Source of the DNA: Escherichia coli
Lineage (GTDB): Bacteria > Pseudomonadota > Gammaproteobacteria > Enterobacterales > Enterobacteriaceae
Assembly: GCF_009931435.1 (NCBI RefSeq)
Contig: NZ_CP043414.1
Length of the DNA stretch: 64,000 nucleotides
Strand: one strand, 5' to 3'
Part shown: one piece after another, positions 6,650 through 63,514 of the stretch
Layout of the letters: every line of letters begins with the position of its first letter
Position numbering within the stretch: position 1 is the first letter of the stretch
The notes under the pieces: generated by a model
Told to the model about the DNA's origin: nothing
What the model saw: the letters and a program-made list of their open reading frames with translations, nothing else
Databases searched by the model: none
Position numbers and translations under genes: made by a program

Positions 6650-7882
6650 TTATCCCTGCTCCCCCATCATCTCCCGCACCAACTCCACGCAGCGCAGGAA
6701 ACGGCTGTCGTAATCGTCCTCTTCAACCCGCACAAATTCGATATTGTTCTCTTCCAGCATCTCCACCAGCAAGTTCTGGAACTCTTTGCGATCCACCGAA
6801 CTGCCGAGACTGCGTAAACCATCCGCCACCCACGGCGTGTTGTTCTCCAGCAGAATCACCAGATCAAAACGGTATTCATCGATCAGCGCCTGTACGAACG
6901 GATGCTCGCGCCCTTCGTACTTTTTGCAGAACGCCTGAGTTGTCACAAAATCGGTGTCGATAAACGCCACTTTATTGGCATATTTTACTGCAAAATCAAT
7001 ATATTGAGCGTGTCCAAGTGCGATTTTATCGTAGTCGGAATACTGCAATGCAATCTCATCGCCGCCAAGATGCGAAAAGACATAATCGCGACCATATTCC
7101 CATGCACTGGTAGTGTTGAAGATATTGGCAAGTTTGTTTACCAGGGTGGATTTACCGCTCGACTCGCCGCCGAGGATCGCCACGGTGCGCACAAAGAACG
7201 GCTTCACTTCGGTAGGAATATATTCCCAGTAGCGGAACGGATTTTCGCGGATCTGCGCACCACTGATACTCATAAAAGTACGTTTCGGATCGACCAACAC
7301 CGTTTCGATCCCCAGATGCTCCATATACTGCGGCGCGTCGGCTTCTTCCGAGGTGTAGATCAGATCCGGCTGGATCCCTTTTTCAGCCATAAACTTTTTG
7401 ATGCCGTTGCTCCACACATCCCAGCCATGCGGATACGGCTCCATGCCCTCTTCGTTGAAGGCATGAATGCGAATATTTTTCTGATATTTAAAAGTTTGCA
7501 ATAACCAGCGCAGACGATCCGGCACCGTGGGCTGCTGCGACATGGCGCTGTCTTCGAACAACGCGCGGTCGCGGGTATCGTCAAAGCCCATAATGATATG
7601 CAGCTCGTCAACCTGACTACAGGCACGCTGGATAAGGTAGATATGTCCGGTATGCAGCGGGTAAAACTTACCGAATACAACACCAATAGTTTTCTTCTGC
7701 CGGGGAAATTCAAGTCCCAAATAACGGTGCAACGCCTCCAGCTTTTGCGCGCTGGGGCTTTTAATTTTGGCATTCAGTAACTGGCTTAAATACCCTTTGG
7801 TCATACCGCTGGCATCAGCCACCTGCTGTAGCGTACAGCCCTGTTGCTTGATGGCAGTTTTCAGATAATCAAATGACGACAT
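6650..7882 (-). CDS. nadR: NadR: transcriptional regulator / NMN adenylyltransferase / ribosylnicotinamide kinase
   Basis: Start placed at MSSFDYLKTAIKQQG... (410 aa) with a GGAGGGAG Shine-Dalgarno; HTH, GVVFGKFYPLHTGH nucleotidyltransferase motif and GGESSGKST P-loop. Confidence 0.9.
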   Translation of the reverse strand: MSSFDYLKTAIKQQGCTLQQVADASGMTKGYLSQLLNAKIKSPSAQKLEALHRYLGLEFPRQKKTIGVVFGKFYPLHTGHIYLIQRACSQVDELHIIMGFDDTRDRALFEDSAMSQQPTVPDRLRWLLQTFKYQKNIRIHAFNEEGMEPYPHGWDVWSNGIKKFMAEKGIQPDLIYTSEEADAPQYMEHLGIETVLVDPKRTFMSISGAQIRENPFRYWEYIPTEVKPFFVRTVAILGGESSGKSTLVNKLANIFNTTSAWEYGRDYVFSHLGGDEIALQYSDYDKIALGHAQYIDFAVKYANKVAFIDTDFVTTQAFCKKYEGREHPFVQALIDEYRFDLVILLENNTPWVADGLRSLGSSVDRKEFQNLLVEMLEENNIEFVRVEEDDYDSRFLRCVELVREMMGEQG

Positions 7883-19516: not shown

Positions 19517-19735
19517 ATGGCGGATGCAGCCTACGGTTCGGCACAGACCTGTAGGCATGATAAGACGCGTCAGCGTCGCATCAGGCATTGTGCGCCAACT
19601 GCCGGATGCGGCGTGAACGCCTTATCCGGCCTACGGTTCGGCACAGACTTGTAGGCATGATAAGACGCGTCAGCGTCGCATCAGGCATTGTGCGCCGACT
19701 GCCGGATGCGGTGTGAACGCCTTATCCGGCTTACG
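19517..19735. repeat. Tandemly duplicated REP/BIME cluster (two ~100-bp units)
   Basis: Unit CCTACGGTTCGGCACAGAC(C/T)TGTAGGCATGATAAGACGCGTCAGCGTCGCATCAGGCATTGTGCGCC(A/G)ACTGCCGGATGCGG(C/T)GTGAACGCCTTATCCGGC occurs twice, about 19529-19628 and 19629-19730. Confidence 0.6.
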
Positions 19736-27530: not shown

Positions 27531-27617
27531 GCGAAGGTGGCGGAATTGGTAGACGCGCTAGCTTCAGGTGTTAGTGTCCTTACGGACGTGGGGGTTCAAG
27601 TCCCCCCCCTCGCACCA
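27531..27617 (+). tRNA. leuQ: tRNA-Leu (anticodon CAG), copy 1
   Basis: 87-nt GCGAAGGTGGCGGAATTGGTAGACGCGCTAGCTTCAGGTG...CCCTCGCACCA with encoded CCA; long variable arm; anticodon CAG. Confidence 0.95.
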
Positions 27618-27645
27618 AAAACCACGTTGATATTGCTCGCACTGG

Positions 27646-27732
27646 GCGAAGGTGGCGGAATTGGTAGACGCGCTAGCTTCAGGTGTTAGTGTTCTTACGG
27701 ACGTGGGGGTTCAAGTCCCCCCCCTCGCACCA
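27646..27732 (+). tRNA. leuP: tRNA-Leu (anticodon CAG), copy 2, with a C-to-T change at position 48
   Basis: Identical to copy 1 except GTTCTTACGG instead of GTCCTTACGG in the variable arm. Confidence 0.95.
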
Positions 27733-27765
27733 AACGAGGCGATATCAAAAAAGTAAGATGACTGT

Positions 27766-27852
27766 GCGAAGGTGGCGGAATTGGTAGACGCGCTAGCTTC
27801 AGGTGTTAGTGTCCTTACGGACGTGGGGGTTCAAGTCCCCCCCCTCGCACCA
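27766..27852 (+). tRNA. leuV: tRNA-Leu (anticodon CAG), copy 3
   Basis: Identical to copy 1. Confidence 0.95.
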
Positions 27853-50642: not shown

Positions 50643-50846
50643 ATGTTTGGTAACTTAGGACAGGCAAAAAAATATCTCGGCCAGGCGGCGAAGATGTTGA
50701 TTGGCATTCCAGACTACGACAACTACGTCGAGCATATGAAGACCAACCATCCCGACAAGCCGTACATGAGCTATGAAGAATTCTTCCGCGAACGCCAGAA
50801 CGCGCGCTACGGCGGCGATGGTAAAGGCGGTATGCGCTGTTGTTAA
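50643..50846 (+). CDS. yjiX: YjiX (DUF466 family small protein)
   Basis: 67 aa [67 protein letters not shown]. Confidence 0.8.
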
Positions 50847-50856
50847 TGGAGAGAGC

Positions 50857-51813
50857 ATGAACCCGATTGCAGTTACCCTACTCACCGGTTTTTTAGGCGC
50901 AGGCAAAACCACCCTGCTGCGCCATATTCTTAATGAACAGCACGGCTACAAGATTGCCGTGATTGAAAACGAATTCGGCGAAGTCTCCGTTGATGATCAA
51001 CTGATTGGCGACCGCGCCACGCAGATCAAAACGCTGACCAACGGCTGCATCTGTTGTTCGCGCTCCAACGAGCTGGAGGACGCGCTACTCGACCTGCTGG
51101 ATAATCTCGACAAGGGCAATATTCAGTTCGATCGTCTGGTCATTGAATGCACCGGCATGGCCGATCCCGGCCCGATTATTCAGACCTTTTTCTCCCATGA
51201 GATTTTATGCCAGCGTTACCTGCTGGACGGCGTGATTGCGCTGGTGGATGCGGTACATGCCGATGAGCAGATGAACCAGTTCACCATCGCCCAGTCACAG
51301 GTTGGCTACGCCGACCGCATTCTGCTGACCAAAACCGACGTCGCAGGCGAAGCAGAAAAACTGCGTGAACGCCTGGCACGCATCAACGCCCGCGCACCGG
51401 TCTACACCGTCACCCACGGCGACATCGATCTGGGCCTGCTGTTCAACACCAACGGTTTTATGCTGGAAGAAAACGTCGTCAGCACCAAACCGCGTTTCCA
51501 CTTTATCGCGGATAAACAAAACGATATTTCGTCGATTGTGGTAGAACTGGATTACCCGGTAGATATCAGCGAAGTTTCCCGCGTGATGGAAAACCTGCTG
51601 CTGGAGTCGGCGGATAAACTGCTGCGTTACAAAGGGATGCTATGGATTGACGGCGAACCAAATCGCCTGCTGTTCCAGGGCGTCCAGCGCCTCTACAGCG
51701 CCGACTGGGACCGCCCGTGGGGCGATGAAAAACCGCATAGCACGATGGTGTTTATCGGGATTCAGCTGCCGGAGGAAGAGATTCGGGCTGCGTTTGCGGG
51801 GTTGAGGAAGTAA
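50857..51813 (+). CDS. yjiA: COG0523/CobW-family metal-binding GTPase YjiA
   Basis: Start placed at MNPIAVTLLTGFLGAGKTTLLRHIL... (318 aa); GCICCS metal-binding motif. Confidence 0.9.
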   Translation: MNPIAVTLLTGFLGAGKTTLLRHILNEQHGYKIAVIENEFGEVSVDDQLIGDRATQIKTLTNGCICCSRSNELEDALLDLLDNLDKGNIQFDRLVIECTGMADPGPIIQTFFSHEILCQRYLLDGVIALVDAVHADEQMNQFTIAQSQVGYADRILLTKTDVAGEAEKLRERLARINARAPVYTVTHGDIDLGLLFNTNGFMLEENVVSTKPRFHFIADKQNDISSIVVELDYPVDISEVSRVMENLLLESADKLLRYKGMLWIDGEPNRLLFQGVQRLYSADWDRPWGDEKPHSTMVFIGIQLPEEEIRAAFAGLRK

Positions 51814-51878: not shown

Positions 51879-52628
51879 TTATGAAACATCACGAAATACA
51901 CAGGTAAGTTCTTTAGGACTTGCTTTCCATATATGGTCAAAGCCACTCGACAGCATGACTTCTATTTTTCCTTCCGGACTTTCAATTAGTAAATAGCGAT
52001 CATGGCAGTTTGTATATTTGGGATTTGTAGTGATTTGCACACTCCATTCAGGATGGATACAATGAACAAAATTACTATTTATTTTACTTCCGTTTTGGAC
52101 TGCAGCGACACCTACTGCGATTTCTGAAAATTCAATAACAAGCTCTTTTCTAGGTAGTACGGAATGAAATAAGCTGCATGTATTCTCCCAATTCTGTGCA
52201 AAGTAATTATCGCATATAATTACTTTTTTTGCATTGCAACATAGCATTTCCAGATACTTTTTTAAATATATTCTATTATCTGTAGGGCTTAATGTAACGG
52301 TAACTTGATTATTAACCATACCTTTTTTATAATGTACAAAGGGAAGTGATAAATTATCATTCTCAGTAAGGATTATTTTCAACAACGATTTAGATGCTAA
52401 AGTAACAAGATCATCATCACTTTCAGGCTGACTTGCTAACATAGATAAATATTGTCGATATTCTAACTCCGGCATCTTCAATCCTAAATTTCTTGCCTCA
52501 ATCCATTGCCTTTTGTTAGTTAAATAAGGTAGTACTAGTTTTTTATGTAATCTCTTCACCTTATTCTTATCATCCATATTTTCATATGCAACTAATAAAG
52601 ATGTATCAAGAACCATTTGATAAGACAT
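51879..52628 (-). CDS. Hypothetical protein, no recognisable domain; third gene of the accessory operon (gene C)
   Basis: 249-aa ORF; ATG 4 nt after the ATPase stop with a GAGGT Shine-Dalgarno; AT-rich coding sequence. Confidence 0.6.
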   Translation of the reverse strand: MSYQMVLDTSLLVAYENMDDKNKVKRLHKKLVLPYLTNKRQWIEARNLGLKMPELEYRQYLSMLASQPESDDDLVTLASKSLLKIILTENDNLSLPFVHYKKGMVNNQVTVTLSPTDNRIYLKKYLEMLCCNAKKVIICDNYFAQNWENTCSLFHSVLPRKELVIEFSEIAVGVAAVQNGSKINSNFVHCIHPEWSVQITTNPKYTNCHDRYLLIESPEGKIEVMLSSGFDHIWKASPKELTCVFRDVS

Positions 52629-52632
52629 TTCT

Positions 52633-53682
52633 TTACCTCATCTTCATCAAATCATCTAAGGTTGCATCAAAAAAACCTAAAGGGAATCCCGTAACATTCT
52701 CTTGCAGATCGGTAAATTTCCCACCTTCATTAACTCTCATCGAGATAAAATCTTTATCCACATCAGGTTTATAATGTACAGAAATATCCTCAGAAGTTAT
52801 AACATCTTCATAAACCAAATACGCAAGTTTATTGATTAAATGTTCACAATGCGTTTCTACAATAATCTGGATACCCTTACTTGCTACAAATGCTAAAAAA
52901 ATTGCCAAATGAGACTGCGCTTTCGGATGCAATTGAATTTCGGGATTTTCTAGCAAAATAAGATCGCCTTTTTTTGCCATCAAACAAATAATCAAAACCT
53001 TTGCAATATAACTCATCCCAGCCCCAAGATTAAGAGGAGAAACATTTCCTTCAAGCTCTTTTAAGGTAAAAGCGACCTTAATCTGGTCACCAACTTTTTC
53101 AGTAACTAATTCAGACGTCGTTCCTGTAATCAGTTTCAACCAATAAGATAATTGATATGCAAGTGTTGTAGATTCGTGAACTTTCACCAGATATTCAGGT
53201 ACTGGCAAATGTTTCATTTTATCAAATGTTGAAAACAAGAATTCTCCTGCAACACCTACTCGACGTTCTGCGGTGGGCACAAATTCTTGTGCCCCCAAGC
53301 GGTTGGCATTCAGATAGAGCAACTCAGGTTCACTACCAGGCACTCTTGGCTCGTATTGATATCCCAGACGACTATCAATTTCGATATTTTCTGAGTTGAG
53401 CGTTAACGAATGAGAATTTTTTTCTGTATCCTGGACTGTTATAACAATAGATTTTGCGTTATTTTTTTTATTTCTAATAACAGGAAAATCAGCTAGAAAT
53501 CGGATAACTTCTTCCATACTATACTGATTAACAGAAGCGCTATTTTTAATTAGTAACATCAATGCCTGAATAACGCTGGATTTACCAGAAGAGTTAGTTC
53601 CAGTTAAAATGGTCAGTGGTGATAACACCAGACTTGTTGAGCCTAAACTTTTAAATCCTTGAATGTTAATATTTGTAAGCAT
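52633..53682 (-). CDS. ABC-type/AAA_21-like ATPase, second gene of the accessory operon (gene B)
   Basis: 349 aa; N-terminal MLTNINIQGFKSLGS... with Walker A GTNSSGKSS; C-terminal Walker B and H-loop (DLILLENPEIQLHP...IIVETHCEHL); start overlaps the upstream gene by 17 nt. Confidence 0.75.
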   Translation of the reverse strand: MLTNINIQGFKSLGSTSLVLSPLTILTGTNSSGKSSVIQALMLLIKNSASVNQYSMEEVIRFLADFPVIRNKKNNAKSIVITVQDTEKNSHSLTLNSENIEIDSRLGYQYEPRVPGSEPELLYLNANRLGAQEFVPTAERRVGVAGEFLFSTFDKMKHLPVPEYLVKVHESTTLAYQLSYWLKLITGTTSELVTEKVGDQIKVAFTLKELEGNVSPLNLGAGMSYIAKVLIICLMAKKGDLILLENPEIQLHPKAQSHLAIFLAFVASKGIQIIVETHCEHLINKLAYLVYEDVITSEDISVHYKPDVDKDFISMRVNEGGKFTDLQENVTGFPLGFFDATLDDLMKMR

Positions 53683-54796
53683 TTTTAATCCTTTCCATTA
53701 TTTCCTTCGCAAAATCAAAACGCATATTTACATATTGTGTTGTATCAATTGCACCAGAAAAAATACCAATCTCATCAAAATTATACTTGTATTGTTCAAT
53801 AAGCTGTTTTAATTCAATATTTTTTGATAAAAATTCAAAACTTATCTGACTGAATACCATAACTAACACTTCGAATAATCCCATATTCACTGGTCGCCTT
53901 TTAGCACCTGATTTTGTTGAAAATCTAAATGCTTCTGAACCCAACGCTTTATAGACATTAGTCATACCAGTTATACAAGCATCTTCAACTTCTTCCAGTA
54001 ACTCATCATCAGCTTTTGTATTAATGAATTTCATCGCAGATGCTAAAAAAGCATCAATATCAGACCTAAATTCAACACCTGGCATTTGATTTGTTACAAG
54101 CAAATAAAATCCTACGAACCGCAAAACCAGATATCTGTCTCGCATACGCTCAGATTTTACGCCATTACCTGTTGCAAGCCTGAAAGACTCGTGTTCAGCG
54201 AGATCCTTAATTAACTTTGTGGCCTTGCCTTGATAAAGAGCATGCCGCATTTCCTGTTTATTTAGATTAATACCACTTCGATTTACACGCTCAAAAATAT
54301 TAAATTTCACATATTCAGGTGTTGGGGGTTGAATCACATAAGAATGTAACTGGCAATCTTCAAGCTTTGCTTGTAATAATGGAGGAATATCAGAAAATTT
54401 TTTTCCTCTCAAGTCAGGCAACATAGATAAATCAGTTAAAGAAAATTCATTGTTAACATAGCGTTTCAATGCAGATATTCGTTGTTTGCCATCAATGATT
54501 TGCCTGACACCATTTTCATCCTCAAAAAGATAAATTAATGGAATAGGAATCCCCATTAAAATAGATTCAATTAATTCTGACTGGTGTTTTCTATCCCAGA
54601 CAAGTTTACGCTGAAAATCTGGAGCAAGAACCAGTTGCCCACGAGCTTCGCGACGGAGTAATTCGAAAACACTGGATTGCTCTTTTGCAATTCGAACCTC
54701 AGTATCTGTCCCCATTTGATGCGGATGAGATGTTAACTCAAGCTCTTCTTGATCTTCGAGTTCAATGCTGTCGTTTTCTACATCCGCATTACTCAT
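53666..54796 (-). CDS. DUF262 (ParB/sulfiredoxin-like NTPase, GmrS-type) domain protein, first gene of the accessory operon (gene A)
   Basis: 376 aa; acidic N-terminal tail then DUF262 motifs PDFQRKLVWDRKHQSELIESILMGIPIPLIYLF...IIDGKQRISAL and FNIFERVNRSGINLNKQEM; no DUF1524/HNH motif found. Confidence 0.75.
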   Translation of the reverse strand: MSNADVENDSIELEDQEELELTSHPHQMGTDTEVRIAKEQSSVFELLRREARGQLVLAPDFQRKLVWDRKHQSELIESILMGIPIPLIYLFEDENGVRQIIDGKQRISALKRYVNNEFSLTDLSMLPDLRGKKFSDIPPLLQAKLEDCQLHSYVIQPPTPEYVKFNIFERVNRSGINLNKQEMRHALYQGKATKLIKDLAEHESFRLATGNGVKSERMRDRYLVLRFVGFYLLVTNQMPGVEFRSDIDAFLASAMKFINTKADDELLEEVEDACITGMTNVYKALGSEAFRFSTKSGAKRRPVNMGLFEVLVMVFSQISFEFLSKNIELKQLIEQYKYNFDEIGIFSGAIDTTQYVNMRFDFAKEIMERIKNAYKY

Positions 54797-55036: not shown

Positions 55037-57469
55037 ATGGCGGAACTGAACCTAAGTAACCTGACGGAAGCAGACATCATTACCAAATGCGTTATGCCAG
55101 CCATTCTCAATGCAGGCTGGGACAACACAACGCAAATCAGACAGGAGGTCAAACTCCGGGACGGTAAAGTCATCGTACGTGGTAAAGTTGCGGCACGCAG
55201 AACGGTAAAATCTGCTGACATCGTGCTGTATCACAAACCAGGCATTCCCTTAGCCGTGATTGAAGCAAAAGCCAACAAACATGAAATTGGCAAAGGGATG
55301 CAACAGGGCATTGAATATGCGCGCCTGCTGGACGTTCCTTTTGTTTTTGCCACCAACGGGGATGGCTTTATCTTCCGCGATGCCACCGCAGCCGAAGGTG
55401 AATGCCTTGAAAAGCAAATAACGCTGGATGACTTCCCCTCCCCCGCTGAACTCTGGCAAAAATTCTGCCTCTGGAAAGGATACACACAAGCTCAGCTTCC
55501 GGTGATTACTCAGGACTATTACGACGATGGCAGCGGTAAATCGCCACGTTATTACCAGCTTCAGGCAATCAACAAAACCATTGAAGCCGTCTCCAACGGG
55601 CAAAACCGCGTTCTGTTGGTCATGGCGACCGGAACAGGGAAAACCTATACCGCATTCCAGATCATCTGGCGCCTGTGGAAATCAAAAAATAAAAAACGCA
55701 TTCTGTTCCTTGCCGATCGCAACATTCTGGTCGACCAAACCAAAAATAATGATTTCCAGCCATTTGGTACGGCAATGACCAAAGTCAGCGGACGCACCAT
55801 TGATCCCGCTTATGAAATTCACCTCGCGCTCTATCAGGCTATAACTGGCCCGGAGGAAGACCAAAAAGCGTTTAAACAAGTCGCACCAGATTTCTTCGAT
55901 CTGATAGTCATCGACGAATGCCATCGCGGCAGCGCATCCGAAGACAGCGCCTGGCGAGAGATCCTTGATTATTTCAGTTCCGCCACCCAAATTGGCTTAA
56001 CCGCCACGCCAAAAGAGACGCATGAAGTCTCCAGCACGGATTACTTCGGCGATCCGGTTTACGTCTACTCGCTAAAAGAAGGGATCGAAGACGGCTTCCT
56101 CGCCCCTTATAAAGTTGTCCGTGTTGATATTGATGTTGATCTGCAAGGCTGGCGCCCAACCAAAGGGCAAACTGACTTAAACGGCGAAGTGATCGACGAT
56201 CGTATCTATAACCAGAAAGATTTCGATCGCACGATGGTAATCGACGAACGCACAGAACTGGTTGCCAGAACCATTACCGACTACCTCAAGCGCACCAATC
56301 CGATGGATAAAACCATCGTCTTCTGTAACGACATCGATCATGCAGAACGTATGCGCCGCGCCCTGGTTAATCTCAACTCGGAGCAGGTGAAAAAGAACGA
56401 CAAATACGTCATGAAAATCACCGGCGATGATGAAATTGGCAAAGCTCAGTTGGATAACTTCATCAACCCGAAAAAACCGTACCCGGTTATCGCGACCACT
56501 TCAGAGCTGATGACCACCGGTGTGGATGCTAAAACCTGCAAACTGGTAGTACTGGACCAGAACATCCAGTCGATGACCAAATTCAAGCAGATTATCGGTC
56601 GTGGTACACGCATCGACGAACGTTACGGCAAACTCTGGTTTACCATCCTCGACTTTAAAAAAGCCACCGAACTGTTTGCCGATGAGCGTTTCGATGGCAT
56701 TCCCGAAAAAGTCATGGATACCACACCAGAGGATATCACCGATCCAGAATCTGATTTTGAAGAGAAACTCGAAGAAATCAGCGAACATGACGACGAACAG
56801 GTAACGGGCGTTGATGAACCGCCTGCGCCACCATACCAGGTTACCGATACCGATGATGTCGGCCCACTTCCGGAAGAAGACGAGAAGAAAATCCGCAAGT
56901 TTCACGTCAACGGTGTCGCGGTGGGCGTTATTGCGCAGCGTGTTCAGTATTACGATGCCGACGGTAAACTGGTTACCGAATCTTTTAAAGATTACACCCG
57001 CAAAACACTGCTCAAAGAATATGCCTCGCTGGATGACTTTACCCGCAAGTGGCAGGACGCCGATCGCAAAGAAGCGATCATTCACGAGCTGGAGCAACAG
57101 GGGATCATCTGGGAAGTACTGGCAGAAGAAGTCGGTAAAGATCTCGACCCGTTCGACATGCTTTGCCACGTAGTGTATGGTCAGCCGCCGTTAACCCGCA
57201 AAGAGCGCGCCGAGAACGTGCGCAAGCGGAACTACTTCACAAAATACTCTGAAGCAGCGCAAGCCGTGCTCGATAATCTGCTGGATAAATACGCCGATGC
57301 GGGCGTACAGGAGATCGAAAGTATTCAGGTGCTGAAACTTAAACCATTCGACAGCATGGGCACTTTACCGGAGATTATTAAAACCGGATTTGGCGACCGT
57401 AACGGGTATAATCAGGCGCTCAGCGAGCTGGAAAACGAAATCTACCAATTACCGCCCCGCTCTGCTTAA
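55037..57469 (+). CDS. hsdR: Type I restriction enzyme R subunit HsdR (short, Type IB-like form)
   Basis: 810 aa; N-terminal PD-(D/E)xK nuclease region and SF2 helicase motifs [26 protein letters not shown]. Confidence 0.9.
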
Positions 57470-57483
57470 CAACTCTCTTTTGC

Positions 57484-57522
57484 GCCTTCTGCAACCATCA
57501 TGTTGCAGAAGGCCTTGTTTTT
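57484..57522 (+). terminator. Rho-independent terminator between hsdR and hsdM
   Basis: Perfect 12-bp stem GCCTTCTGCAAC / GTTGCAGAAGGC with a 6-nt loop, followed by CTTGTTTTTC. Confidence 0.55.
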
Positions 57523-57535
57523 CATGGAATACAAC

Positions 57536-59005
57536 ATGTCTATCAGCTCAGTAATCAAATCATTACAAGATATTATGCGCAAAGATGCCGGTGTGGATGG
57601 CGATGCGCAGCGTCTCGGTCAGCTCTCCTGGCTGCTGTTTTTGAAAATCTTCGATGCCCAGGAAGAGGCGCTGGAACTGGAGCAGGATAACTATCAATAT
57701 CCGATCCCACAGCGTTATTTGTGGCGCAGTTGGGCCGCCAACGCGCAGGGCATTACCGGTGATTCCCTGCTGGAATTCGTTAATGATGATCTGTTCCCGG
57801 CGTTGAAAAACCTCACTGCGCCTATCGATAAAAACCCACGCGGCTACGTGGTGAAGCAGGCGTTCAGCGATGCCTATAACTATATGAAAAACGGTACGCT
57901 ACTGCGTCAGGTGATCAACAAGCTGAACGAAATTGACTTTACCAGCGCCAGCGAACGCCATCTGTTTGGTGATATTTACGAACAGATCCTTAAAGATCTG
58001 CAATCTGCGGGCAATGCTGGCGAATTCTATACTCCACGCGCCGTCACTCGCTTTATGGTGGATCGCGTTGATCCGAAACTCGGCGAATCCATTATGGACC
58101 CGGCCTGCGGTACGGGCGGTTTTCTTGCCTGCGCATTTGATCATGTAAAGAACAAATACGTGAAGAGCGTCGCCGATCATCAGACTCTGCAACAACAGAT
58201 CCACGGTGTCGAGAAAAAACAGCTTCCGCACCTGCTGGCGACCACCAATATGCTGCTGCACGGCATTGAAGTACCGGTACAAATTCGTCACGACAACACC
58301 CTGAATAAACCGCTTTCCTCCTGGGATGAGCAACTGGATGTGATTGTTACCAACCCGCCATTTGGTGGCACGGAAGAAGACGGTATTGAGAAGAACTTTC
58401 CGGCAGAGATGCAAACCCGCGAAACGGCGGATCTGTTCCTGCAACTGATTGTGGAAGTACTGGCGAAAAACGGTCGCGCGGCGGTGGTATTGCCGGATGG
58501 CACACTATTTGGCGAAGGCGTTAAAACCAAAATCAAAAAACTGCTTACCGAAGAGTGCAACCTGCATACCATCGTGCGTTTACCGAATGGGGTGTTTAAC
58601 CCCTATACCGGCATTAAAACCAACCTGTTGTTCTTTACCAAAGGTCAGCCAACCAAAGAGATTTGGTTCTATGAGCATCCGTATCCGGCGGGCGTGAAAA
58701 ATTACAGTAAAACCAAGCCGATGAAGTTTGAAGAGTTTCAGGCGGAGATCGACTGGTGGGGGAACGAGGCCGATGGTTTTGCCAGCCGCGTCGAGAATGA
58801 GCAGGCGTGGAAAGTCAGCATTGATGACGTGATTGCGCGTAACTTCAATCTGGATATTAAAAACCCACATCAGGCGGAAACCGTTAGCCATGATCCGGAC
58901 GAGCTGTTAGCGCAGTATGCAAAGCAGCAGGCGGAGATCCAGACGCTGCGTAATCAACTGCGCGATATTCTTGGCGCTGCGCTGTCTGGCAAGGAGGTTA
59001 ACTGA
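57536..59005 (+). CDS. hsdM: Type I restriction-modification N6-adenine DNA methyltransferase HsdM
   Basis: SAM motif DPACGTGGFL and catalytic NPPFGG; start placed at MSISSVIKSLQDI... after the hairpin (the track ORF starts at 57500, inside the hairpin). Confidence 0.9.
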   Translation: MSISSVIKSLQDIMRKDAGVDGDAQRLGQLSWLLFLKIFDAQEEALELEQDNYQYPIPQRYLWRSWAANAQGITGDSLLEFVNDDLFPALKNLTAPIDKNPRGYVVKQAFSDAYNYMKNGTLLRQVINKLNEIDFTSASERHLFGDIYEQILKDLQSAGNAGEFYTPRAVTRFMVDRVDPKLGESIMDPACGTGGFLACAFDHVKNKYVKSVADHQTLQQQIHGVEKKQLPHLLATTNMLLHGIEVPVQIRHDNTLNKPLSSWDEQLDVIVTNPPFGGTEEDGIEKNFPAEMQTRETADLFLQLIVEVLAKNGRAAVVLPDGTLFGEGVKTKIKKLLTEECNLHTIVRLPNGVFNPYTGIKTNLLFFTKGQPTKEIWFYEHPYPAGVKNYSKTKPMKFEEFQAEIDWWGNEADGFASRVENEQAWKVSIDDVIARNFNLDIKNPHQAETVSHDPDELLAQYAKQQAEIQTLRNQLRDILGAALSGKEVN

Positions 59006-60753
59006 TGAGTGTGGAAAAGCTGATCGTTGATCATATGGAAACCTGGACCTCGGCGTTGCAAACCCGTTCCACCGCCGGGCGCGGCAGTTCCGGAAAAATT
59101 GATTTATATGGCATTAAGAAATTACGTGAGCTGATTCTGGAACTGGCTGTGCGCGGTAAACTGGTGCCGCAGGATCCGAATGATGAACCGGCGTCGGAGC
59201 TGCTGAAGCGTAATGAAGAACGGAAAAAAGAATTAGCGCGCAATAATGGTATGAAAACCACAGCAAGCACTAATATCCATGGAAATGAATATTATATCGA
59301 TACCCCCGAAAAGTGGTCATGGATAAGACTTGGTAATTTAGCTAAATTCATCGATTACCGAGGGAAAACACCACATAAAAAAGAAAATGGTATAAGGCTT
59401 ATAACAGCAAAAAATATCAGAAAGGGCTGTATTGATCTCAATCCAGAAGAATTCATATCTGAAGAAGATTACATATCATGGATGACAAGAGGCTTTCCTA
59501 AATGTGGTGATATTTTATTCACAACTGAAGCACCACTGGGGAATGCAGCGATTATTGATTTAGACGGAAAGTTCGCTCTTGCTCAACGTTCTATCTGTTT
59601 TCAATGGCATACTCCAGAGATAAGCCCTTTTATGCTTATTCAAATCCTGGCGATCCCCTTCCAGTCACAACTAAGTGACAAATCTACAGGCATGACCGCA
59701 ACAGGAATAAAAGCGTCTAAGTTAAAAGAGATCCCTGTTATTTTACCACCTTACCAAGAACAAATACGTATTGTATCCAAAGTACAGGAGTTCATGTCCC
59801 TATGTGACCAACTGGAACAGCAATCCCTGACCACTCTGGACGCACATCAGCAACTGGTTGAAACCCTGTTGGGAACGCTTACAGACAGCCAAAACGCCGA
59901 GGAACTGGCTGAAAACTGGGCGCGTATTAGCGAGCATTTCGACACCCTATTTACCACCGAAGCCAGCGTGGATGCGTTAAAACAGACCATTCTGCAACTG
60001 GCCGTAATGGGCAAACTTGTGCCGCATGATCCGAATGACGAACCAGCCTCTGAACTGCTCAAACGAATTGCGCAGGAAAAAGCTCAACTGGTGAAAGAAG
60101 GAAAAATAAAAAAACAAAAACCGTTGCCGCCGATTAGCGATGAGGAAAAACCTTTTGAACTGCCGGAAGGGTGGGAATGGATTAGACTAGGAAATATTGG
60201 TGAAGTTAAAGGGGGCGGAACCCCAAGTAAAAACAATCCTGATTTTTGGAAAGGTAATATTCCATGGGTTTCACCAAAGGATATGAAGGTTAATTACATC
60301 TCCAAAAGTCAACTAAATATTTCAAAAGAGGCTGTATTGGAGAGTTCAGTACATCTAATTCCTGAAAATAGTCTTATTTTTGTTGTCCGAGGCATGATTT
60401 TAGCCCATACATTCCCCGTAGCAATAACAAAAAAAGAAGTCACTATTAATCAAGATATGAAAGCCATATCAACTAATCAATTAAATACTGATTTTTTAAT
60501 TTACTTACTTAAAGCAAACGAGACTCGAGTAATATGCTTAGTTGACCGCTCCTCTCATGGCACATGTAAACTTGTTTCAGATAAACTTTTCAATTTGGTT
60601 TTACCGTTGCCTCCATTAGAAGAACAATTTCGTATTACAGAACGAATAAATATGCTATTAGCTTATTGTGATAGATTGAAAAATTATATAAATCTAAAAA
60701 AACAAACCCAACTGCACCTTGCAGATGCACTCACTGACGCGGCGATAAACTAA
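59005..60753 (+). CDS. hsdS: Type I restriction-modification specificity subunit HsdS
   Basis: 582 aa; ATG overlaps the hsdM stop (TGATG); two target-recognition domains, each preceded by a conserved repeat (LAVRGKLVPQDPNDEPASELLKR / LAVMGKLVPHDPNDEPASELLKR). Confidence 0.9.
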   Translation: MSVEKLIVDHMETWTSALQTRSTAGRGSSGKIDLYGIKKLRELILELAVRGKLVPQDPNDEPASELLKRNEERKKELARNNGMKTTASTNIHGNEYYIDTPEKWSWIRLGNLAKFIDYRGKTPHKKENGIRLITAKNIRKGCIDLNPEEFISEEDYISWMTRGFPKCGDILFTTEAPLGNAAIIDLDGKFALAQRSICFQWHTPEISPFMLIQILAIPFQSQLSDKSTGMTATGIKASKLKEIPVILPPYQEQIRIVSKVQEFMSLCDQLEQQSLTTLDAHQQLVETLLGTLTDSQNAEELAENWARISEHFDTLFTTEASVDALKQTILQLAVMGKLVPHDPNDEPASELLKRIAQEKAQLVKEGKIKKQKPLPPISDEEKPFELPEGWEWIRLGNIGEVKGGGTPSKNNPDFWKGNIPWVSPKDMKVNYISKSQLNISKEAVLESSVHLIPENSLIFVVRGMILAHTFPVAITKKEVTINQDMKAISTNQLNTDFLIYLLKANETRVICLVDRSSHGTCKLVSDKLFNLVLPLPPLEEQFRITERINMLLAYCDRLKNYINLKKQTQLHLADALTDAAIN

Positions 60754-60775
60754 TTTTCTCGCCCTCATAAAACCA

Positions 60776-60801
60776 ATAAAGCGGCTAAATAGCCGCTTTA
60801 T
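60776..60801. terminator. Hairpin downstream of hsdS
   Basis: ATAAAGCGGCT-AAAT-AGCCGCTTTAT palindrome 23 nt after the hsdS stop; no strong U-tract. Confidence 0.35.
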
Positions 60802-60880
60802 TCACATCACCAAAAATTATATTTTACGCTAATTTTCATCTTATTTTCATTAATTTTTAGCTGGACTTTCCCCATATTTA

Positions 60881-60896
60881 CTGATGATATGTCCAG
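60881..60896. promoter_or_regulatory. LexA (SOS) box in the symE promoter
   Basis: CTGATGATATGTCCAG, a CTG-N10-CAG box (with flanks TACTG...CAGGT) about 80 bp upstream of the symE ATG. Confidence 0.5.
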
Positions 60897-60914
60897 GTAT
60901 TTAGCGCGGTGCGA

Positions 60915-61000
60915 ATGTGCGCCAACACACCCGCACCGCTCATCACAATCCCTATTTCACGAGAATAGTAATCATGACTGACACGCATTCTATTGCACAA
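60915..61000 (-). ncRNA. symR: Expected position of the SymR antisense sRNA (boundaries not determinable from sequence)
   Basis: Placed only by analogy: in K-12 SymR is encoded antisense to the symE 5' UTR and start codon; no independent sequence evidence. Confidence 0.25.
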
Positions 61001-61315
61001 CCGTTCGAAGCAGAAGTCTCCCCGGCAAATAACCGTCAATTAACCGTGAGTTATGCGAGCCGCTACCCGGATTACAGCCGTATTCCCGCCATCACTCTGA
61101 AAGGTCAGTGGCTGGAAACCGCCGGTTTTACCACCGGCACGGCGGTAGATGTCAAAGTGATGGAAGGCTGTATTGTCCTCACCGCCCAACCACCCGCCGC
61201 CGAGGAGAGCGAACTGATGCAGTCACTGCGCCAGGTGTGCAAACTGTCAGCGCGTAAACAGAAGCAGGTGCAGGAGTTTATTGGGGTGATTGCCGGTAAA
61301 CAGAAAGTCGCCTGA
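60974..61315 (+). CDS. symE: SOS-induced toxin-like protein SymE (AbrB/SpoVT fold)
   Basis: 113 aa [48 protein letters not shown]...; track ORF starts at an upstream Met (60917). Confidence 0.85.
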
Positions 61316-61322
61316 TACATTG

Positions 61323-61354
61323 ACCCGGTAGCGCCAGTGCTACCGGGTATTATT
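61323..61354 (+). terminator. Terminator hairpin between symE and the convergent GmrSD-like gene
   Basis: ACCCGGTAGC-GCCAGT-GCTACCGGGT hairpin followed by ATTATT. Confidence 0.5.
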
Positions 61355-61361
61355 CGCCACG

Positions 61362-63110
61362 TTATACCAACGCGCTCTCCATCTGTTTTTCAAATGCCTG
61401 ACGGATTAATCCCATAATGTAAGGAAGTTGTGCGAGGTCGCTGAAACCAATTTCTACATCGCCATTGCCCCAGCGCCCAACATTTGTCACATCTTTGGCA
61501 ATACCTTTCGGATCGACCAGTTCATGAAACTGCATATTAAGCGACAATCGCAGTCGGCTTTTTTGCGGCACAACATCAACAAAATTCGTTTCCGCTTTAA
61601 ACGCAATATAGAGCTTCAATACTTCCTGCGTGATCCCTGCGTCCAGGCGCAAAACTTCATCGCTAAGATGATCGAATAACACCCGGCTATGCGAACCATC
61701 AGCAAGAAAAGGATAATCACTCAGGCTGTAACTGGTTTTGTTTTCCGGCTGCCCCCGATAAACAGCTAAAACCTCTTCAGGAAGAGAAGGCGCTTGCCAG
61801 ACCTGAACCGCGAGATCGGCCAGACGATCGGCTCGGGCGTGAATGGCAGCTTCATCCCATTTTTCGCACTGTCCAAGACCGATATTCAAATAAAGCGGGC
61901 TATGCTTAAAGCCGTCTTCAATATCGCGTTTTTCCGCGAAAGGTCTGTCACTGTAGCGGGAGTTATAGCGCGTTAAAGTGAGATTCCCCAACGTATGCAA
62001 CAATTCTTTATGAATACGCTGCCAGTCGCTTCCCAGCTCTTCGCGCCATTTAGCCGACAAATTTTCGTTCTGCGGCATAATGTGCTCAATCGTAAACTCT
62101 TCCACGCGCTCTCTGCGTTTATTGTTTTCCAGTCGTCGTAACCAGTAACTGCGACTGCGGAAGTTATAGAGATCGCGAACTTTTAATTCCCGTTTAAATT
62201 CATCATCGTTGGGGAAACGACGATATGAAGGTAGATTCAGAAAATGTACCTGAATACTTTCCAGATAATTTTCTTTATTAATAACTTTATAAAAAGTGGC
62301 AAACGTCTTGTTAAGAGAATTTGTTGGAATCGCACATACTGCACGGCGGAAAACATAAGATTCAATTAAACGAATTATGCTCAGGAAATCTTCACGAGAC
62401 AAAACGCCATTTTTATAGTCATGATAAAGCGCCAGTAAGAAAGGATACGCCACATCGACTTTTAACTCGCGCAAATCCTGAAAAGCCGTAGCAAGCGATT
62501 TGTCACTTTCTTTTCCCAATGCCATTGCACAGTAATACTCCGCGTAGATGTGAATATCTTCAACCAGCCGATCTACGCCTTTTTCAGCAACACTCTGGCT
62601 ACGGGCATGGAGTTTAAAAGCCTCATAGACTTCATCTGTCCGAGGGATCTCCCCCGTTTTTACCGTCAGATAATGACGCATAAAACTGTCAAAATATTCG
62701 CTGTAACCTTGCTGACCAAAGGCGACTTCCATGGGTCGCCAGTGATCTTCATACAACCGGGTTTGATGCTCTGGTTCGAGACCCATCAGAATAAAATTGC
62801 GCACCAGATCGGCCTGACTTAACGCCTTACCGGTGGAGTTCATACTTTCAAAAATCAGTTGCGGATTATCCTGACCACGATTAAGCGCCACATCGACAAT
62901 TAATAACTTTGCTAACCCACGACATAAGGGGATCAAGTCATCACCGAGTTTGGCAATTTGTTCATCAAAGAAAGTAAAGTTTTCCATTATTCGATGGGAA
63001 TAGTTTTCTGGCATTGGTCTTTGTTTTATTAACGCCAGCAAACTGTCTTTATCAGTCTCGGTAAGCAGTAATTTAAATCCTTTCTCGCCGGACTCATAAG
63101 GATTGAGCAA
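61362..63110 (-). CDS. GmrSD-family (DUF262 C-terminal part + DUF1524 His-Me finger) protein lacking the N-terminal DGQQR core; possibly the yjiT-equivalent locus
   Basis: 582-aa ORF with a TTG start right after an in-frame stop; DUF262 distal motif IFESMNSTGKALSQADLVRNFILMG; DUF1524 motif EHIMPQNENLSAKW...LHTLGNLTLTRYNSRYSD; only 64 bp separate it from yjiS. Confidence 0.7.
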   Translation of the reverse strand: MLNPYESGEKGFKLLLTETDKDSLLALIKQRPMPENYSHRIMENFTFFDEQIAKLGDDLIPLCRGLAKLLIVDVALNRGQDNPQLIFESMNSTGKALSQADLVRNFILMGLEPEHQTRLYEDHWRPMEVAFGQQGYSEYFDSFMRHYLTVKTGEIPRTDEVYEAFKLHARSQSVAEKGVDRLVEDIHIYAEYYCAMALGKESDKSLATAFQDLRELKVDVAYPFLLALYHDYKNGVLSREDFLSIIRLIESYVFRRAVCAIPTNSLNKTFATFYKVINKENYLESIQVHFLNLPSYRRFPNDDEFKRELKVRDLYNFRSRSYWLRRLENNKRRERVEEFTIEHIMPQNENLSAKWREELGSDWQRIHKELLHTLGNLTLTRYNSRYSDRPFAEKRDIEDGFKHSPLYLNIGLGQCEKWDEAAIHARADRLADLAVQVWQAPSLPEEVLAVYRGQPENKTSYSLSDYPFLADGSHSRVLFDHLSDEVLRLDAGITQEVLKLYIAFKAETNFVDVVPQKSRLRLSLNMQFHELVDPKGIAKDVTNVGRWGNGDVEIGFSDLAQLPYIMGLIRQAFEKQMESALV

Positions 63111-63173
63111 ATAATAACCACTTCCTTGTGAAGGTTATAGAGAAATCCGGTTTATCTGCGATGAATTGCCCCC

Positions 63174-63338
63174 TCACTCCACATCCTCCCTGCGTAACCC
63201 AATATCCCTCAACCGTTCATCACTCATCTGCTGTAACACGCGTCGGGTCTGCATTTGCCGCCGCCAACGCCTCACCGCCTGCCAGAGTTGCACCAGGCCG
63301 ATAAACGGCGCTTTAGCTCTGTTTTCGTGAAATTCCAT
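63174..63338 (-). CDS. yjiS: DUF1127 small protein YjiS
   Basis: 54-aa ORF MEFHENRAKAPFIGLVQLWQAVRRWRRQMQTRRVLQQMSDERLRDIGLRREDVE; below the 60-aa cut-off of the ORF track. Confidence 0.75.
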   Translation of the reverse strand: MEFHENRAKAPFIGLVQLWQAVRRWRRQMQTRRVLQQMSDERLRDIGLRREDVE

Positions 63339-63514
63339 CTGCTGCCTCCTCATCTTTCAGAGGCTTCATCATCCGTCTTCTGGCAGTTCATAATACAGAT
63401 GCAAATATTACTTTTATTTAACATACAGACAGGTTAAAACAACATCTGCATCCGGTTTTTTAGCCTCATCTGTACCGGTTTTTCTCTCTGTATGGTCCAC
63501 ATAAGGAATACAGC

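Follow-up and report, generated by a model that had tools for sequence, protein, structure and literature searches.

The closest described relative of the locus analyzed here is the symE/symR module of Escherichia coli K-12 (yjiW/RyjC; Kawano, Aravind & Storz 2007, PMC1891008). The protein SymE adopts an AbrB/MazE-like fold and is toxic on overproduction in K-12 (PMC1891008). Endoribonuclease activity was the first proposal for its function; according to a 2024 review (PMC11894785), Thompson et al. 2022 found that SymE does not cleave RNA but binds DNA non-specifically and condenses the nucleoid. The controls exerted on K-12 symE by LexA, SymR, and Lon are additive (PMC1891008; PMC4147584). 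The K-12 symE/yjiW box is an accepted LexA site (PMC1891008; PMC6590174), and LexA binding and damage induction of yjiW/symE are credited to Fernandez de Henestrosa 2000, as cited in PMC1891008. In another study, K-12 symE showed a 1.5-fold response to AZT that was not scored as induction by the authors, and its expression was LexA-dependent (PMC11228462).

The pairs tisB/istR-1 and dinQ/agrB are built on the same principle, a LexA-repressed toxin gene together with a small RNA that prevents its translation (PMC4147584). Nevertheless, the tisB and dinQ toxins are small membrane peptides, whereas SymE is a 113-aa soluble protein with the AbrB/MazE fold. Furthermore, IstR is adjacently encoded (PMC1891008), while SymR is a true cis-antisense RNA, lying over the ribosome-binding site and the start codon.

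The module belongs to a well-described variable region, the immigration control region (ICR, defence hotspot 36) of Enterobacteriaceae, which groups a type I system and a type IV enzyme with symE symR, and for which the published anchors are yjiA and yjiN. He et al. 2015 described ICRs carrying GmrSD, an "endoribonuclease", hsdS/M/R, and Mrr, without McrBC (PMC4437046), and a 2025 review lists symE symR among the ICR contents and states that a GmrSD homologue replaces McrBC in some genomes (PMC12707154). Thus, the region is already known to vary, to carry symE symR, and to have GmrSD homologues in the place of McrBC.

We analyzed a 64-kb stretch of E. coli DNA (hereafter, the window) in which an original prediction had placed an SOS-controlled symE immediately downstream of hsdS. 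The locus is real but ordinary: it is the known E. coli symE/symR module, intact and in its most common configuration. Every element of the module is present and intact, in its expected position and with a conserved sequence (Table 1). The hsdS gene ends 220 nt upstream of symE on the same strand, as predicted, and the antisense SymR proposed to cover the 5′ end of symE was recovered at full length. The interval originally assigned to the gene, 60881-61315, opens with the CTG of the LexA box and closes with the stop codon of symE, but the coding sequence itself starts only at 60974. The contrast drawn between the position of symE here, flanked by hsdS and a GmrSD-like gene, and a position next to mcrBC holds in part. 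The right-hand neighbor does differ and is not mcrBC, but K-12 symE also stands directly behind hsdS; the exchange of position thus concerns the right-hand side only, and on the left it is the hsd family itself that is different.

Table 1. Features of the symE/symR locus and of the surrounding restriction cluster, in window coordinates
Feature	Coordinates	Strand	Description	Evidence
yjiA-like CobW GTPase	50773-51813		Left anchor of the restriction cluster	
NsnA/B/C-like trio	51879-54796	-		PADLOC
hsdR	55037-57469		Operon with hsdM and hsdS	Pfam ResIII and EcoEI_R_C
hsdM	57500-59005		Type IB hsdRMS operon	Pfam N6_Mtase
hsdS	59005-60753	+	Last gene of hsdR-hsdM-hsdS	Pfam Methylase_S, 2.6e-33
GC-rich hairpin AATAAAGCGGCT..AGCCGCTTTATT	60775-60802		Between hsdS and symE; 12-bp stem	Terminator scan (- strand)
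Conserved symE/symR module	60843-61311	+	~470 bp	Match boundaries and alignments
LexA operator (SOS box) TACTGATGATATGTCCAGGT	60879-60898	+		Motif, matrix, K-12 alignment
SymR	60903-60979	-	77 nt	Rfam RF01809
Probable symE Shine-Dalgarno remnant GAGAA	60961-60965	+		Read from sequence and K-12 alignment
symE CDS	60974-61315	+	113 aa	Pfam PF08845 SymE_toxin
symR promoter, -10 hexamer TAGAAT	60987-60992	-	Within symE codons 5-7	K-12 alignment
Hairpin ACCCGGTAGC/GCTACCGGGT	61323-61348		10-bp; between convergent symE and GmrSD-like gene	Sequence reading
GmrSD-like type IV restriction gene remnant	61362-63110	-		Pfam GmrSD_C, 2.9e-26; partial GmrSD_N
yjiS (DUF1127)	63174-63353		Right edge of the cluster	

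The open reading frame of symE is complete. It matches PF08845 with an E-value of 4.5e-21 and 75.1 bits (cutoff 29), with residues 20-71 of the protein covering profile positions 1-54 of 54. The product is identical to K-12 SymE at 107/113 residues, with no frameshift or premature stop, and orthologues annotated as symE are found in RefSeq in 2,871 complete E. coli genomes; PADLOC has no SymE model. The six amino-acid differences from K-12 include Ala-to-Thr changes at positions 49 and 53: T49 is also found in the allele of ST131, while T53 is absent from all five alleles with which the protein was compared. By analogy with K-12, the protein would be toxic on overproduction in the window strain as well. 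Upstream of the start codon, the stretch GAGAA corresponds to GGAGA in K-12, the two cores being CGAG in the window and GGAG in K-12; it is the probable remnant of the symE Shine-Dalgarno sequence and would presumably still act as such. The 72 nt from 60974 to 61045, which comprise the symR promoter and the symE 5′ coding region, show no difference from K-12.

The antisense RNA matched RF01809 at 88.9 bits, above the gathering score of 61, over positions 1-77/77 of the model; the E-value was 2.3e-17 in a 2-kb scan and 7.3e-16 when the entire window was scanned with gathering thresholds applied. The 5′ end of SymR, at 60979, lies 3 nt beyond the symE ATG (60974-60976), and its 3′ end stops 5 nt short of the LexA box. 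The ribosome-binding site and the ATG are therefore covered, the RNA being complementary to the first 6 coding nucleotides of symE, to the ribosome-binding region, and to ~70 nt of leader. In K-12 the arrangement is the same: symE has the same orientation, the RNA is 77 nt long and starts 3 nt after the ATG, the -10 hexamer is TAGAAT, and the LexA box occupies the same place.

The minimum-energy structure of SymR consists of two hairpins (−37.6 kcal/mol; z = −5.06), a stability reached by 0 of 200 shuffled sequences; K-12 SymR has the same two-hairpin architecture, with −37.8 kcal/mol and z = −5.28. The Shine-Dalgarno remnant of symE sits inside the loop side of the first hairpin. In the second hairpin, the window differs from K-12 by a single change that turns a G-C pair into G-U. 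The corresponding A, at 60914, is found in none of the 5,426 complete E. coli genomes. Across seven E. coli alleles, which form a shallow alignment of sequences too similar for a covariation analysis, only one-sided changes were seen.

Two observations on the hairpins concern the wider set of alleles. The loop of the first hairpin (60950-60973, the Shine-Dalgarno region of symE) is the most variable part of the module, with five versions among the seven alleles, e.g., GGAG in K-12, CGAG in the window, and AGGG in O157:H7. In the symE leader of ST131 (L005, ~7040-7065), the tip of the second hairpin is exactly inverted, changing from GTGCGCCAACAC to GTGTTGGCGCAC, its reverse complement; the stem is kept and the loop is flipped. 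Read from the sequence, the change has the signature of a hairpin-tip inversion.

Alignment with the K-12 symE-symR locus, proposed as a check with the original prediction, also placed the promoter of the small RNA. In K-12, SymR was abolished by a CATTCT to CACTCC change inside symE (Kawano et al. 2007, PMC1891008). The mutated CATTCT corresponds to 60986-60991 of the window, where it is unchanged, so that the -10 hexamer on the SymR strand is TAGAAT. A sigma-70 consensus scan called no promoter for symE or symR in the region, and no convincing -35 for either gene could be placed by eye; the assignment of both promoters therefore rests on homology with K-12.

Three further Rfam matches in 60767-60948 (minus strand) were rejected as falling below threshold: IS128 (26 bits vs. 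a cutoff of 80), sraL (21.7 vs. 39), and the L20 leader (22.3 vs. 58.7). We attribute them to chance or to the hairpin of the hsdS terminator. Elsewhere in the window, naRNA4 (CssrE, a REP-derived nucleoid-associated RNA) is present in two tandem copies, 19554-19631 and 19654-19731 (minus strand), both above the Rfam gathering threshold (79.1 and 71.4 bits). There are also three tandem tRNA genes at 27531-27849 (plus strand), ~115-120 bp apart, each of ~84 nt and 48.5 bits.

The LexA box, which had been called good, is present and orthologous to that of K-12, but it is moderate to weak in its predicted strength. The CTG-N10-CAG core, at 60881-60896, has both triplets and the 10-bp spacing intact. 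The bare core is not significant by itself and was rejected as evidence, since the window holds 22 copies where 13.3 are expected; the longer pattern TACTG-N10-CAGNT has a single match in the 64 kb, at 60879-60898. To score the site we used a LexA matrix built from 28 E. coli operators. Its validation consists only of a correlation with the published heterology index (HI), which for leave-one-out scores of 23 sites is r = −0.986 (PMC11228462). TACTGATGATATGTCCAGGT is the top-scoring 20-mer of the window, with 13.8 bits vs. 11.9 for the runner-up, and bona fide LexA sites span 8.8-25.4 bits on the same matrix. For the K-12 symE box, the matrix predicts an HI of 7.8, and the published value is 7.9 (PMC11228462). 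With the matrix calibrated on published HI, the box of the window is predicted at ~10.4, between dinB (9.4) and ybfE (11). The allele ending in ..ATATCCAGGT, carried by five of the six E. coli loci with which the window was compared, is predicted at ~8.5.

In the alignment, the window box pairs base for base with the K-12 symE (yjiW) box TACTGATGATATATACAGGT. The left half-site and the CTG and CAG triplets are the same, while ATATAC of K-12 becomes ATGTCC, adding two departures from the consensus. In all, 13 of the 20 positions match TACTG(TA)5CAGTA, leaving seven off against five in K-12. The C at box position 15 is common to many E. coli, and the G at 60891 (box position 13) occurs in none of the 5,426 complete genomes, among which 60845-60935 is matched at best with two mismatches. 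The boxes of O157:H7 and ABW_A19, too, are without G at position 13. The box is 76-95 nt upstream of the ATG, where K-12 has its own; the consensus scan assigned no -35/-10 pair there. From its HI, the operator is predicted to be weaker than that of K-12, and the strain-private change is a new but minor detail.

A weaker operator raises the possibility that the module is present while its SOS control is no longer effective, the operator changes having weakened LexA binding to the point that SymR and Lon dominate. The rise in predicted HI over both K-12 and the common E. coli allele, the private G at 60891, and the fact that induction is marginal even from the K-12 operator (PMC11228462) all point in this direction. 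On the other hand, the changes leave the two triplets and their spacing untouched, the box is still the best LexA-like site in 64 kb, and operators with comparable or poorer indices, namely dinB (HI 9.4), ybfE (11), and polB (13), are damage-induced (PMC11228462). Taken together, we regard a loss of SOS control as unlikely.

The restriction cluster around the module, at the right end of the window, has the order yjiA-like gene, NsnABC-like trio, hsdRMS, symE/symR, GmrSD-like gene, and yjiS. It adjoins the yjiA anchor of the ICR and is bounded on the right by yjiS, with yjiN lying beyond the window end; the flanking yjiA and yjiS genes are the same in K-12, O157:H7, and ABW_A19. Like the described ICRs, it joins a type I system and a type IV gene to symE symR, and it represents one more combination of the ICR: NsnABC-like genes, a type IB hsd operon, symE/symR, and a truncated GmrSD. 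The slot between yjiA and hsdR, which holds mrr in K-12 and DUF262/HNH genes in O157:H7 and ABW_A19, is occupied here by the NsnABC-like trio, in which PADLOC recognized NsnA (DUF262; 2e-110), NsnB (AAA_15/AAA_21 ATPase; 1.5e-78), and NsnC (2.2e-71).

On the left of symE, the hsd operon is of type IB (EcoAI family), its orthologues carrying the EcoAI/FtnUII family label in E. coli records; that of K-12 is of type IA. The GC-rich hairpin between hsdS and symE is likely a terminator and part of the left flank specific to type IB: it is shared with ABW_A19, while K-12 has a different hairpin at that place. On the right, where K-12 has mcrBC, the window has the GmrSD-like remnant. The hairpin that separates it from symE belongs to the GmrSD-side flank and has no canonical T-run, and the terminator scan does not call it; it is found in ABW_A19 and WP7 and is absent from K-12.

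The GmrSD-like neighbor named in the original prediction carries GmrSD_C and a partial GmrSD_N domain and is a 5′-truncated remnant. The C-terminal GmrSD_C domain (DUF1524; GmrD, HNH) is complete. The N-terminal DUF262 domain (GmrS) is incomplete: GmrSD_N is matched only at profile positions 102-198 of 199, with 32.2 bits, below the Pfam cutoff of 33.2. PADLOC Orf5 matches the open reading frame at profile positions 104-542 of 543. Compared with O157:H7, ABW_A19, and other E. coli, 370 bp are missing. The deletion junction, at ~63110-63117, is flanked by AATAATAA microhomology, and with the missing segment the gene has lost its start codon and ~100 residues at the beginning of the DUF262 domain. 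All 12 best-matching complete genomes keep the 370-bp segment. This truncation is a second new but minor detail of the locus. The remaining frame is continuous over 582 codons; in O157:H7 and the other two strains sampled, the region is annotated as two ORFs or a pseudogene.

Among the loci inspected gene by gene, those of O157:H7 and ABW_A19 are the closest to the window. They have the same gene order, type IB hsd-symE-GmrSD-yjiS, and the same flanks on both sides, with 94-96.5% identity over 60754-61361; they differ by a GmrSD region that is 370 bp longer (two ORFs or a pseudogene by annotation). A further sampled locus combines a type IA hsd operon with symE and GmrSD. K-12 has mrr-hsdR-hsdM-hsdS-symE-mcrB-mcrC, with type IA hsd; ST131 has an hsdM-S-R operon followed by symE and yjiS, with nothing in between; and the locus of ETEC1716 has a truncated symE. 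The allele of WP7 is, by alignment, a mosaic of K-12-like and window-like sequence, which is consistent with crossovers in or next to the symE block.

A conserved block, which begins ~36 bp before the LexA box and ends in the final codons of symE, emerges from these comparisons, the flanks outside it being unrelated. Using 60754-61361 of the window as query, the block boundaries fell at query positions 88-90 and 538/558 in 2,871 genomes, and queries from K-12 and ST131 gave equivalent boundaries at 301-308 and 749-770. The proposal that the module is kept while the surrounding restriction genes are exchanged is supported: the block is present with differing neighbors in 2,871/5,426 complete E. 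coli genomes, but it is absent from the other 47%, in which no match was found. Among the symE-bearing genomes, ~1,304/2,871 carry the block with the 3′ flank of the window, a flank that leads into a GmrSD-like gene in the window and in the three other loci in which it was followed. The ST131-like hsdR-symE-yjiS junction accounts for 888 genomes and the K-12-like hsdS-symE-mcrB junction for 588, and the three classes together comprise ~2,780/2,871 (~97%). The symE-GmrSD arrangement is thus the commonest in complete E. coli genomes. Considering longer segments, the window is 97-98% identical to many E. coli genomes over 18 kb, and no complete genome matches its ICR from end to end, the best covering 76% at 98.3%.

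In the window, as in each of the six E. coli loci inspected, symE lies directly behind the last hsd gene, whether the operon is type IA, type IB, or M-S-R-ordered, and is followed by mcrBC, a GmrSD-like gene, or nothing. Such constancy, extended by the three junction classes to ~2,780 of the 2,871 symE-bearing genomes, would be expected if symE/symR were a functional accessory of the type I systems of the ICR, possibly answering the DNA damage caused by self-restriction, and Kawano et al. had already noted an association of SymE-family genes with R-M systems (PMC1891008). The same adjacency is equally expected, however, if symE is simply the stretch in which cassettes recombine, and the mosaic WP7 allele fits crossovers in or near the gene. 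Adjacency is the sole positive evidence for an accessory role, and the gene-by-gene inspection covers few loci. We consider such a role improbable, and its more specific form, in which symE/symR would be a functional partner of the type I systems of the ICR through, for instance, an SOS-triggered, nucleoid-compacting response to self-restriction damage, is a speculation from gene order that we hold to be quite improbable. If true, the partner reading would explain why symE stands behind three types of hsd operon in ~2,800 genomes while its other neighbor changes freely.

That symE is a decaying, functionless passenger retained at a recombination junction between two restriction cassettes is highly improbable. 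In favor of this reading, the adjoining GmrSD-like gene is a deletion remnant, symE is truncated in other strains such as ETEC1716, and 47% of complete E. coli genomes are without the module. Against it, the frame here is full length with the SymE_toxin domain covered end to end, K-12 has exactly the same symR promoter and 5′ coding region, and SymR scores well above its Rfam threshold.

We therefore return to the reading in which the module of the window works as that of K-12 does, which we consider very likely. LexA binding, the expression and action of SymR, and the control by Lon would all be expected by analogy with K-12. In this model, LexA bound at 60879-60898 would hold symE transcription low until damage triggers its cleavage. 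SymR would be transcribed, independently of damage, from its own promoter in symE codons 5-7; being perfectly complementary to the leader, ribosome-binding site, and start, it would block translation, with a smaller effect on the level of the symE mRNA. Any SymE produced would then be removed by the Lon protease. As the operator is predicted to be weaker than that of K-12, basal symE transcription may be somewhat higher in the window strain, and SymR and Lon may carry more of the repression.

The value of these results lies mostly in a correct annotation of the locus, beyond which they matter little. The RefSeq product name "endoribonuclease SymE" reflects the older view of the protein and predates the DNA-binding result. 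The private, weaker box may serve as a natural variant for measuring operator strength against the leakiness of symE. As for the E. coli species, the mcrBC neighbor of K-12 symE is a minority arrangement, and the symE/symR block is confirmed as a stable landmark of a defence island that varies widely.
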